DNA of 64,000 nt from Promethearchaeati archaeon SRVP18_Atabeyarchaeia-1. GTDB taxonomy: Archaea; Asgardarchaeota; Atabeyarchaeia; Atabeyarchaeales; Atabeyarchaeaceae. The notes beneath the pieces were generated by a model. It saw only the letters and a program-made list of their open reading frames with translations. It was not told the DNA's origin and made no database searches. The stretch's first letter is position 1. Each line of letters starts with the position of its first letter. Positions 52,847-54,677 of this stretch are shown here, in pieces. Position numbers and translations under genes: made by a program. The stretch spans positions 128,001-192,000 of the forward strand of contig CP147779.1 in the NCBI GenBank assembly GCA_037308085.1, written 5' to 3'.

Positions 52847-53935
52847 CTATGCTAGAAACTCTTCCTTCAGCATTTGCAGATAATTGACTGCCATTTCGCT
52901 TGAGATCTCTCCAGATGCCCACTTTGTCCGGATGTTGTCGATCATGTATTCTGGGAAGAACAAAGAGATCTGTGGGTCTGCCTTGAGAAGGTATGCCCTA
53001 TGGTTGGAGCTGTCTGTAAGCTCGCTGACTATTCCTAGTTTCACCAAGTTCTTGATCAGCTTGCCAACCTCGTTACCCGATTTCTCAGTTAACTTCACGA
53101 GTTCGTCTTTATCGAGCACGCCCTTCCTGAGTTGGGATATCATCTGGTATAGGCTTGAATCGGTCAGTATTTCGGCGACCTTCATCATGTCATCCTCTGA
53201 CGGCTCACGTTTCTTAAAGAAATCAGTGATCTGGTTCCTCGACAGTTTTGCCGTATTTCCTTTTATCTCGCCTCTAAGTATCCTAGTCATTACTACCTCA
53301 GGAGGCACGAAAGCCGCAAATACATCCCGCGCGAGAAATATGCAGTCTCCTGTGACTCCTTCGACGACTCTCTTCTTGACAATGCCGGCCCTTGTTAGCG
53401 GGACCAGTAGTAGGTCTATGTCTGCTATTTGGGTTCCGAGCTCCTGTTCCAGCCACTCTTGTAGTTCCATCTTCGACATGCAACTTTCCGTCAATCTCCT
53501 GAAGATGAGCCTCCTCACTGGGTCTGAGAGTATAAGGGCTATTCTCTGCTCATCAGTTAGCTTAACGTACTCTGTGAGCCGGTCATACGCTTTGGCGAGA
53601 AAATCTTGGTAATTATCCATACCCAGTTTCTTTAGAAGATCCCTCGCAGCCTCGGTTAGTGGTTCCTCAAATATCCCTGCATCCTCATCTGAGCCTAGGA
53701 TAAGCGCAATGTAGTACTGTGCCTCACCCTTTCGGACAAGGCCGGTGTAGTAGCTTGCGACGTTCATCGCTTCCAGCTTCATTGACATAAAGCCAGCTTT
53801 TCCCTCTCCCATGGCGTGAGAAGTAAAAATCCTCATCGTCTCGTCAGCTGTCAGTTGGAGGTCTTCAGGGTACTTGGCGTCAAGCACCGTGCCCTGATTA
53901 TCATCCCATCTGACTGTGACAATTCCCTTCGGCAT
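52847..53935 (-). CDS. Longin/uDENN-like domain fused to two winged-helix-like domains (NPRL2-like architecture)
   Basis: N-terminal VRWDDNQGTVLDAKYP hairpin motif; two wHTH-like segments (LLVPLTRAGIV; IKNLVKLGIV). Confidence 0.6.
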   Translation of the reverse strand: MPKGIVTVRWDDNQGTVLDAKYPEDLQLTADETMRIFTSHAMGEGKAGFMSMKLEAMNVASYYTGLVRKGEAQYYIALILGSDEDAGIFEEPLTEAARDLLKKLGMDNYQDFLAKAYDRLTEYVKLTDEQRIALILSDPVRRLIFRRLTESCMSKMELQEWLEQELGTQIADIDLLLVPLTRAGIVKKRVVEGVTGDCIFLARDVFAAFVPPEVVMTRILRGEIKGNTAKLSRNQITDFFKKREPSEDDMMKVAEILTDSSLYQMISQLRKGVLDKDELVKLTEKSGNEVGKLIKNLVKLGIVSELTDSSNHRAYLLKADPQISLFFPEYMIDNIRTKWASGEISSEMAVNYLQMLKEEFLA

Positions 53936-54194
53936 AGGATCCGTTCAAGCCTCCTCTAGGCCTTCATGGGTTGCCAGCTCGCTTCAATATGCGCGAGCAC
54001 GCCGTGTTCAGGCTTCCGAGAACCTCCTCAGCGTATTTCAGTAGGAAGCCCACATTCTTGACTAATTATTGGGGGAATCAAGATATCAATATTCCCTTTC
54101 ATTCTGCGATGATCGCAACATCTCCAGGTGACAATGAGTCTGATTGGGATGAGATTCTTCACGAACTGCTATCTACGGTTATCCTGAAGAACTG

Positions 54195-54677
54195 TCATTT
54201 GGCTGTTGCTCCAAGATCCTTTCCTGTTGGCGCCAGCAGCTCTTTTTCCATTGTCTCTAGTTCCTTTTTCACGGAGCCTGTGATCTTCAATTCACCAGTG
54301 TTGACTCGAACGCGGAGAGACATCCACCTGAAGGAATCGGAGAGTAGTTGCTGGAAGTTTTCCTGGTTGCGGCGAGCGATGAGCCTCCCTGAGATCTTTT
54401 CAAGCGATTCCTTGTATTTCTCCCCGCTCTCGTCTTGTCTCAGAACTATGGCAACCATGTACTGCGGTCTTCCTCTTACAGCCATTCCAGTATAGAAGCT
54501 GGCAATGTTCGAGTTACCTATTCTGAGAGTCTGGAAACCGGTAGTCCCAGCCATGGCTGCGCTGCTGAAGGCCGTTATGAGGTTTCCTTCATTGTAGAAG
54601 CGCTCGTCGGGGAAGTGTTCCCCAACAACTGGCCCAGTAGCGTCGTCCCAATGTAGTATGATGAGACCCTTAGGCAT
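54195..54677 (-). CDS. Stand-alone longin/uDENN-like protein, paralog of the N-domain of 52847-53935
   Basis: MPKGLIILHWDDATGPVVGEHFP aligns with MPKGIVTVRWDDNQGTVLDAKYP; NIASFYTG aligns with NVASYYTG. Confidence 0.62.
   Translation of the reverse strand: MPKGLIILHWDDATGPVVGEHFPDERFYNEGNLITAFSSAAMAGTTGFQTLRIGNSNIASFYTGMAVRGRPQYMVAIVLRQDESGEKYKESLEKISGRLIARRNQENFQQLLSDSFRWMSLRVRVNTGELKITGSVKKELETMEKELLAPTGKDLGATAK

Follow-up and report, generated by a model that had tools for sequence, protein, structure and literature searches.

Tandem NPRL2/FLCN-type longin genes in a conserved array with a giant cell-surface protein in an Atabeyarchaeia genome

The window analyzed in this study, a stretch of 64,000 nucleotides (nt) of contig CP147779.1 (positions 128,001 to 192,000, forward strand) from the Asgard archaeon Promethearchaeati archaeon SRVP18_Atabeyarchaeia-1, contains two adjacent minus-strand genes encoding related proteins of 160 and 362 amino acids (aa), referred to herein as the short and the long paralog. 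The source genome consists of a single 2.81-Mb contig, the closest named homologs of the pair are found in Njordarchaeota and 'Candidatus Atabeyarchaeum', and the DNA of the locus is present in wetland and freshwater-sediment metagenomes. The initial annotation, made from the sequence, had described the pair as longin-domain proteins and proposed that they form a heterodimer with GTPase-activating protein (GAP) function through Arg68, in the manner of GATOR1 and FLCN. The features of the pair are as follows.

54195..54677, minus strand: short paralog, 160 aa; stand-alone longin domain (residues 1-127) with a helical tail (134-148)
54630..54650, minus strand: W-D-D-A-T-G-P, codons 10-16 of the short paralog, at the b1-b2 turn
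54474..54476, minus strand: Arg68 codon of the short paralog, in the b4-b5 loop
52847..53935, minus strand: long paralog, 362 aa; longin domain, winged helix 1, linker, winged helix 2 and two C-terminal helices, an NPRL2-like layout
53561..53935, minus strand: longin domain of the long paralog, aa 1-125
53732..53734, minus strand: Arg68 codon of the long paralog, with Lys69 next to it
53300..53554, minus strand: winged helix 1 of the long paralog, about aa 128-212, net charge -2
52952..53191, minus strand: winged helix 2 of the long paralog, about aa 249-328, ArsR/SmtB-like fold, net charge 0

The longin pair and its structural relatives

Both open reading frames (ORFs) were confirmed, and BLASTP aligned their products with 30% identity over 133 aa (E 1e-23), indicating that they are true paralogs rather than a chance match. 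The strings that had been pointed out as common to the two, namely MPKG, WDDxxG......P and N(V/I)AS(Y/F)YTG, were present in both, and the second winged helix of the long paralog was found to terminate in an invariant FFPEY. A Pfam scan gave no match at E <= 1 for either paralog, including the NPR2, NPR3, Folliculin and helix-turn-helix (HTH) families, and a sequence-based profile search of the PDB returned no longin match.

The structural models, in contrast to these searches by sequence, were informative. With the family alignment as input, AlphaFold2 modeled the long paralog with a predicted local distance difference test score (pLDDT) of 91.9 and a predicted template modeling score (pTM) of 0.85, and the short paralog with a pLDDT of 87.6. 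Secondary structure assignment by DSSP revealed the longin topology b1-b2-a1-b3-b4-b5-a2-a3 in both models, with a five-stranded sheet between a1 and a2/a3 and with b1 (4-11), b2 (15-22), a1 (30-42) and b5 (74-80) at identical positions. The b4-b5 loop spanned residues 64-73 in the long and 63-72 in the short paralog, enclosing Arg68 in each case, and the two winged helices expected in the long paralog were also found in its model. The models gave Z scores of 9-13 to many solved longin domains, and the fold proposed at the outset was thus upheld.

When the PDB was searched with Foldseek, the top matches of the long model were Npr2/Npr3 of SEAC, NPRL3 and NPRL2 of GATOR1, and the FLCN complex (E 2e-5 to 3e-4), the alignments to the NPRL2, NPRL3 and Npr2-3 chains covering about 360-370 columns, while the best match of the short model was NPRL2 (5e-5). 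Re-alignment of the long model to NPRL2 with VIA gave a Z score of 13.2, with 186 residues aligned across positions 1-308 of the model, and a search of the short model independent of Foldseek likewise placed NPRL2 first (Z 11.0, 134 residues aligned). The comparison with NPRL2 and FLCN that the initial annotation had suggested therefore returned these very proteins as the best solved matches. The second winged-helix region of the long model (244-331) resembled CzrA, YodB and SmtB (VIA Z 9-10). A shape search of the ESM Atlas with the long model retrieved three Asgard clusters, followed by rows that included two eukaryotic NPR2 clusters (residues 1-325) as well as several ArsR/MarR-type double winged-helix regulator clusters (residues 125-324). 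As modeled, the short and long paralogs are NPRL2/FLCN-type longin proteins of the Asgard Njord/Atabey lineage.

Conservation across the family pointed to the start of the longin domain rather than to the loop arginine. Among 64 long-family sequences, W10, D11, G15, P23, MRIFTSHAMG (34-43), G48, F49, ASYYTG (60-65) and Q73 were near-invariant, the conservation being concentrated in the longin domain at W10, D11, G15 and helix a1. A GP motif at the b1-b2 turn has been reported as a specific feature of FLCN, NPRL2, SMCR8 and C9orf72, the last of which has its essential W33-D34 five residues before G38-P39 (PMC12290439); W33 and D34 contact ARF1 (PMC8213707). In the short paralog, both the WD and the GP elements are complete (W10-D11-D-A-T-G15-P16), and the W-to-G spacing of five equals that of C9orf72. 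The long paralog has half of the GP motif (G15-T16), and most of the long family likewise has T, A or V after G15. The family-wide signature is thus W10-D11...G15, which, by analogy to C9orf72, would correspond to the WD...G face that holds the GTPase.

The placement of Arg68 in both proteins before the last longin strand agreed with the codons and with the models, and the loop of the short paralog (MAVRGRPQ) contains Arg70 in addition. The Arg68 of the long paralog, however, lies one residue before the column in which its relatives carry their Arg: in that column, four residues before the invariant Q73, the long paralog of the window has Lys69, and Arg was observed in 37 of the 64 long-family sequences. 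Arg-bearing loops were LAARGEPQ or LALRGMPQ in the Njord/Atabey long family, MAVRGRPQ in 20/20 short homologs, IVRE-EEQ in Thor and ILR-GRDQ in some Hel sequences. Odin long-family proteins have Lys in the column, Loki and fused forms (TGPE----TGY) have a shortened loop lacking a conserved basic residue, the Hod- and Jord-named long-family homologs were without the loop Arg, and so were most of the other stand-alone GP-type short longins. The conservation of Arg68 across the family thus did not hold up, and the loop Arg is, as read from the alignments, a lineage-specific addition or retention.

The family was also compared with Asgard proteins above the threshold of Pfam Folliculin (PF11704), which served as a proxy for FLCN. 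That such Folliculin-type longins of Asgard archaea have the GP motif and the Arg finger in common with the GAP longins of eukaryotes is published (PMC12290439). In nine such longins, D13, G17-P18 and R82-G83 ('FDDxxGP' and 'ARGG') were invariant. Profile alignment with hhalign was collinear over 105 columns, pairing WDDATGP with FDDKMGP and placing Arg68, in a weak match, one column from the invariant Arg. Searches of the source genome for PF11704 and PF06218 found nothing, and PF11704 had no hit in the genome families f1 (Njord/Atabey), f2, f6 and f12, all of which possess the present family. PF11704-type longins occurred in 20/21 genomes of family f21 and 10/11 of f27, where the present family was seen in only 3/21 and 2/11, respectively; both occur in families f7 and f18 and in part of f9. 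The two distributions are partly complementary across the phylum, and the present family is a distinct family within the same structural class as the FLCN-type longins.

The short paralog was restricted to the window's own genome family: the 20 homologs found were all of the Njord/Atabey type and all contained VRGRPQ. The short gene adjoined the long gene in 3/3 f1 genomes searched, and the RG-PQY loop is common to the short protein and the Njord long proteins. Its origin was placed differently by two trees: it stood alongside other GP-type stand-alone longins in a 71-row quick tree (SH-aLRT 88) and inside the Njord long clade in a 33-row tree (SH-aLRT 87), on a long stem branch (1.5-1.8). The alternative placement was not rejected by the approximately unbiased (AU) test (p 0.16), and considering this conflict, neither 'recent tandem duplicate' nor 'ancient separate subfamily' was accepted as fact.

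Other GP-type short longins lie near the same GTPase subfamily that accompanies the long family (see below) or near KaiC-like ATPases. The source genome encodes a fourth, distant stand-alone longin paralog of 152 aa (L004:1429-1887 = G000:C1:2336401-2336859), with a KaiC/RecA-like ATPase gene (L004:2270-3076) about 400 nt downstream. On another Asgard contig (L037:1269-2408), the gene of a GP-type short longin stands directly before that of a KaiC-like ATPase (Pfam ATPase), after which a giant secreted protein is encoded.

Giant surface proteins and GTPase genes near the long family

The genes flanking the pair form an array on the minus strand, in the order 434-aa gene, ~265-aa gene, short longin, long longin with its two winged helices, 161-aa gene and giant surface protein.

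55704..57008, minus strand: 434-aa gene, first of the conserved array
54835..55761, minus strand: 308-aa ORF upstream of the pair, likely about 265 aa from residue 43
52304..52789, minus strand: 161-aa gene between the long paralog and the giant protein
47290..52077, minus strand: giant surface protein, 1595 aa
47689..47712, minus strand: juxtamembrane motif KIPFVIKK, aa 1456-1463 of the giant protein

The 1595-aa protein was predicted to comprise a signal or transmembrane (TM) segment (13-31), an ectodomain of ~1400 aa, a TM helix (1426-1444) and a cytoplasmic tail of ~150 aa, in which YRRSKIPFVIKKIDQSVKLITKG directly follows the TM helix. The other members of the array recur as well. The long gene is followed by a homolog of the 161-aa gene in genomes of Atabey, Odin, Hel and f30 (BLASTP; L007, L016, L013/14 and L034). 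The 308-aa ORF is conserved upstream of the pair, and Odin and f18 genomes also have it in the vicinity of the long gene. The 434-aa gene has homologs in the same position in Atabey and Odin and, in f18, close to the long gene. The window shares with an Odin-type genome the order 434-like, 308-like, X, long, 161-like, giant. In slot X, filled by the short longin in Njord/Atabey, the Odin-type genome has a 224-aa JAB/MPN+ (HTHPG...D) protein with a C-terminal TM helix (L016:10458-11132, minus strand), and a JAB gene also precedes a longin-GTPase gene in L036. The products of the 161-, 308- and 434-aa genes had no match in the Pfam scan, and the ESM Atlas returned no usable relatives for the 434-aa protein and a 257-aa Atabey homolog of the 308-aa ORF, the models of which were poor (pLDDT 0.34-0.39).

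The giant protein, two genes downstream of the pair, had escaped the initial annotation, as had a set of fused proteins that together with it provide the strongest context. At least nine proteins of 588-2548 aa were found to carry the longin module near their C-terminus, behind a signal or TM segment at the N-terminus, a very large ectodomain, one TM helix and a ~90-aa linker; in most of them the longin domain is followed by two winged helices. The entire long protein of the window aligned to the last 380 aa of one of them, P0166 (28% identity over 361 aa, E 9e-52). The linker of the fused proteins starts with YRxYKxAKIPxFVKK, i.e., the juxtamembrane motif of the window's giant protein recurs in the fusions between the TM helix and the longin-winged helix module. 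Five fused proteins were scanned against Pfam; Laminin_G_3, DUF2341 and CarboxypepD_reg were hit in the ectodomains of two, and the other three gave no match. Furthermore, the second long paralog of the source genome (C1:1482877-1483968) is directly followed by a 1468-aa giant bearing RRARIPFIVKKIDESMKLIAKG (motif RIPFIVKK). The link of the long gene to a giant TM protein thus recurred in Atabey, in Loki and in the fusions; in Odin it was one of adjacency only, the motif being undetected.

Three GTPase genes of a kind unlike the usual partner described below flank P0166 (L012:3733-5688, 12349-13272 and 14582-15565); one encodes a 651-aa double GTPase and two encode ~310-aa Ras-type proteins, the 307-aa one with a weak Roadblock/LC7 hit. 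Elsewhere in the source genome, tandem genes for ~900-1045-aa proteins (G000:C1:1269365-1272502 and 1272644-1275352, minus strand) encode a mid-protein TM segment and similar C-terminal cytoplasmic domains (…NVGNYIMATLFCTEAAGEELQ…), and these may represent another surface-protein family with a roadblock/longin-like inner domain.

A profile search with the long-family domain gave 398 cluster representatives, and the long family was present in 218/301 genomes of the phylum at 1-10 copies each. Its neighborhoods were surveyed at about 24 distinct loci from 10 genome families, scanned with our own hidden Markov models. At about 21 of these, a giant or juxtamembrane-motif TM protein, a gene of one GTPase subfamily, or both lay within 3 kb. 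In Njord/Atabey (f1), the GTPase gene is divergent from the long and giant genes, and a module of short, long, small gene and juxtamembrane-motif TM protein also occurs. At Odin loci a giant or TM protein adjoins the long gene, and at Loki loci the stop codon of the giant overlaps the long gene's start. The gene of a 280-aa GTPase lies 13-30 nt from the long gene in f18 and f7, in Hel the GTPase gene is adjacent or 0.8 kb away, and in Thor a 530-600-aa GTPase is encoded 0.5-2.9 kb away. The second long paralog of the source genome has a 293-aa small GTPase gene upstream, in divergent orientation.

The GTPases adjacent to the long family, except those of roadblock-Ras type flanking the fused giant, all had their best matches among the same three of the 32 GTPases of the source genome, with E values of 1e-30 to 1e-43, the others scoring about 1e-10. 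They combine a longin-like N-terminus (Clat_adaptor_s hit) with an Arf-like G domain, and the partner-type GTPase retains DxxGQ as DLAGQ. Genes of this longin-Arf-like type adjoined long-gene orthologs in f1, f18, f7, f12 and f6. The architecture belongs to a class described by Tran et al. 2024 (PMC10933270), according to whom the genome layout seldom pairs Asgard GTPases with regulators. A dedicated partner that recurs in this way points to a switch.

Proposed role of the pair and its alternatives

Considering that the pair shares a conserved operon with the giant cell-surface protein, a membrane-docked platform for a small GTPase is likelier than an arginine-finger GAP, and we regard this as the probable role of the pair, with moderate confidence. 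The long protein would dock on the cytoplasmic tail of the giant protein, and its conserved WD...G longin face would hold the longin-Arf-like GTPase at the membrane. The short paralog, with its full set of WD, GP and Arg, probably pairs with the longin domain of the long protein to give a two-longin platform, modeled on NPRL2-NPRL3 or C9orf72-SMCR8, whose output could be that of a GAP, of a guanine nucleotide exchange factor (GEF) or of a scaffold.

Several observations weigh against the platform and its class assignment. No GTPase gene adjoins the pair of the window, the nearest lying ~10 kb (just past the window edge) and ~20 kb away, and both of these small GTPases belong to other subfamilies; four of the surveyed loci (two Hel, one Loki and one f30) have neither partner nearby. 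A gap of 259 nt separates the short and long genes, which are hence not translationally coupled. The longin-only scores hardly separate NPRL2 (Z 11-13) from other longins (Z 10-12), such as the Loki Roadblock-Longin (12.2), Lst4 (11.2) and VAMP7 (10.9), a margin of about 1-2 Z, so that the assignment to the NPRL2 class rests on rank, full-length layout and motifs. The hhalign match to the Asgard Folliculin-type longins is also weak (probability 16%, E 0.0016).

The more distant of the two nearest GTPases, a 180-aa Ras-like protein (32746-33288, plus strand), was rejected as a partner on account of its distance and subfamily. It is the best Ras-family match of the genome (E 9e-57).

The heterodimeric GAP put forward in the initial annotation, a forerunner of GATOR1 and FLCN with Arg68 as its finger, is unlikely in our estimation. 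Its setting in the GAP class gained from the fold, from the rank of NPRL2 and FLCN among the structural matches, from the Arg68 in the b4-b5 loop of both proteins and from the linkage of the family to GTPase genes. The short paralog, with its complete WD, GP and Arg set and an Arg in 20/20 homologs, the invariant ARGG of the Folliculin-type longins within one column of Arg68 in the weak hhalign match, and the DLAGQ of the partner-type GTPase are all in line with such an activity. Against this stand the lack of any Pfam NPR2 or Folliculin membership, the confinement of the short paralog to a single genome family, the absence of a GTPase gene adjoining the window pair and the distribution of the Arg, which is found in only 37/64 long-family sequences and is replaced by Lys in the aligned position of the window's long protein. 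In f18 and f7, where the GTPase gene abuts the long gene, the loop is short (GGWE----LNY) and has no conserved basic residue, as is the case in Loki and the fused forms; a lack of Arg68 conservation had itself been named at the outset as an outcome that would speak against the proposal. An Arg-finger GAP is possible in Njord/Atabey, but it cannot be the conserved mechanism of the family.

The winged helices raise the question of whether the long protein is instead a transcription regulator, in which a longin sensor would sit over two ArsR/MarR-like winged helices and be modulated by the short paralog. Homologs are named ArsR, MarR or biotin-operon regulators in their sources and a few of them hit HTH Pfam families, the second winged helix matches ArsR/SmtB repressors (Z 9-10), and the double winged-helix regulators of the ESM Atlas cover residues 125-324. 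The window protein, however, has no Pfam HTH match and is acidic (pI 5.1), with net charges of -2 and 0 on winged helices 1 and 2 and of -1 and +2 on their recognition helices, and its conservation is concentrated in the longin domain. Moreover, the whole module is found membrane-tethered behind giant ectodomains, and NPRL2 and NPRL3 likewise employ winged helices in protein contacts. Because of the low pI, the non-basic recognition helices and the membrane-tethered fused forms, DNA binding is unlikely, and a regulator appears quite improbable. The tight coupling or fusion to giant secreted proteins, together with the appearance of SR-alpha and SNARE longin folds among the structural matches, could also be explained if the longins were helpers for the assembly or export of the giant protein, comparable to the SRX longin of the signal recognition particle (SRP) receptor or to a SNARE-type longin, with no regulatory GTPase cycle. 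In the fusions, however, the module stays permanently with the mature protein, as its cytoplasmic domain, and is no transient helper, the recurrent dedicated GTPase suggests a switch, and the NPRL2-type matches outrank the SRX and SNARE longins; such a helper role thus seems scarcely likely.

Comparison with known systems and implications

Among characterized systems, NPRL2-NPRL3 (yeast Npr2-Npr3; GATOR1/SEACIT, a GAP for RagA/Gtr1) provided the best structural match of both window proteins. The long paralog resembles NPRL2 in length (362 vs about 380 aa) and in the succession of longin and winged helices, and the pair resembles NPRL2-NPRL3 in the b4-b5 loop Arg and in being two paralogous longins encoded together. 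Pfam NPR2, on the other hand, was negative here, the short paralog lacks the C-terminal domain of NPRL3, no DEPDC5-like gene was recognized, the Arg is not conserved in the family, and the coupling is to a giant surface protein instead of a lysosomal scaffold. The candidate GTPase, with an N-terminal longin-like segment and an Arf-like G domain, also differs from Rag, which has a C-terminal roadblock. With C9orf72-SMCR8 (CSW complex, an ARF GAP), the spacing of WD...GP is identical (W10 D11...G15 P16 vs W33 D34...G38 P39; PMC12290439), the W/D that contacts ARF1 in C9orf72 is the most conserved feature of the present family, and the candidate partner is Arf-like; the differences are that DENN domains are absent here, that winged helices follow the longin domain and that the Arg-bearing partner is not assignable with confidence. 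The longin fold, the (F/W)DxxxGP start and the ARG-type loop are shared with FLCN-FNIP2 and with the Asgard Folliculin/SMCR8-type longins (PF11704; Traffic 2025, PMC12290439), which nevertheless form a separate family in which GP and Arg are invariant, both being variable in the present one. MglB-MglA offers a further parallel as a prokaryotic roadblock/longin-superfamily platform paired with a cognate small GTPase gene, although MglB, a roadblock homodimer that scored a Z of about 6 here, has neither winged helices nor coupling to a surface protein.

Asgard NPRL2-like longins, consisting of a longin and an NPRL2-like C-terminal part, have been reported from the majority of Thor genomes and from a few of Loki (Liu et al., bioRxiv 10.1101/2020.10.19.343400). 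These represent the same idea and probably overlap with the proteins described here; the text of Liu et al. mentions neither a connection to giant surface proteins nor fused forms, and it includes no dedicated GTPase subfamily and no stand-alone paralog. Our literature search found no published description of the coupling to giant surface proteins or of the fused forms. What is described here is thus a genuine and well-supported member of a class already known in part, with a twist particular to its lineage, and the GAP claim is a hypothesis weakened by the distribution of the Arg.

Outside the array, the window contains two divergent paralogs of the IF-2B family (57605-58636, minus strand, and 58742-61014, plus strand; ribose-1,5-bisphosphate isomerase or eIF2B-like), one of which precedes the gene of a form III-like RuBisCO large subunit, an arrangement kept in Atabeyarchaeum. 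A KTI12/PSTK-like P-loop kinase gene (63045-63731, minus strand; Pfam KTI12, E 3e-33) adjoins a nucleotidyltransferase gene.

Asgard genomes encode dozens of small GTPases and longin/roadblock proteins without known pairings. Fusion and neighborhood now tie an NPRL2/FLCN-class longin to a specific GTPase subfamily and to the tails of giant proteins, which gives concrete candidate partners and bears on the origin of the longin GAP complexes that eukaryotes have at membranes. Having the complete WD, GP and Arg set, the tandem short paralog lends itself naturally to testing whether a two-longin catalytic platform is older than eukaryotes. Tentatively, and with more doubt than the platform itself, one may envisage an archaeal receptor-to-GTPase pathway, in which the giant protein would recruit the long and short platform via its tail and the platform would switch the longin-Arf-like GTPase, with an Arg finger in Njord/Atabey. 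If this were true, the pathway would represent a membrane-anchored forerunner of the GATOR1, FLCN and C9orf72-SMCR8 GAP complexes and would provide cognate partners for some of the many orphan Asgard GTPases.

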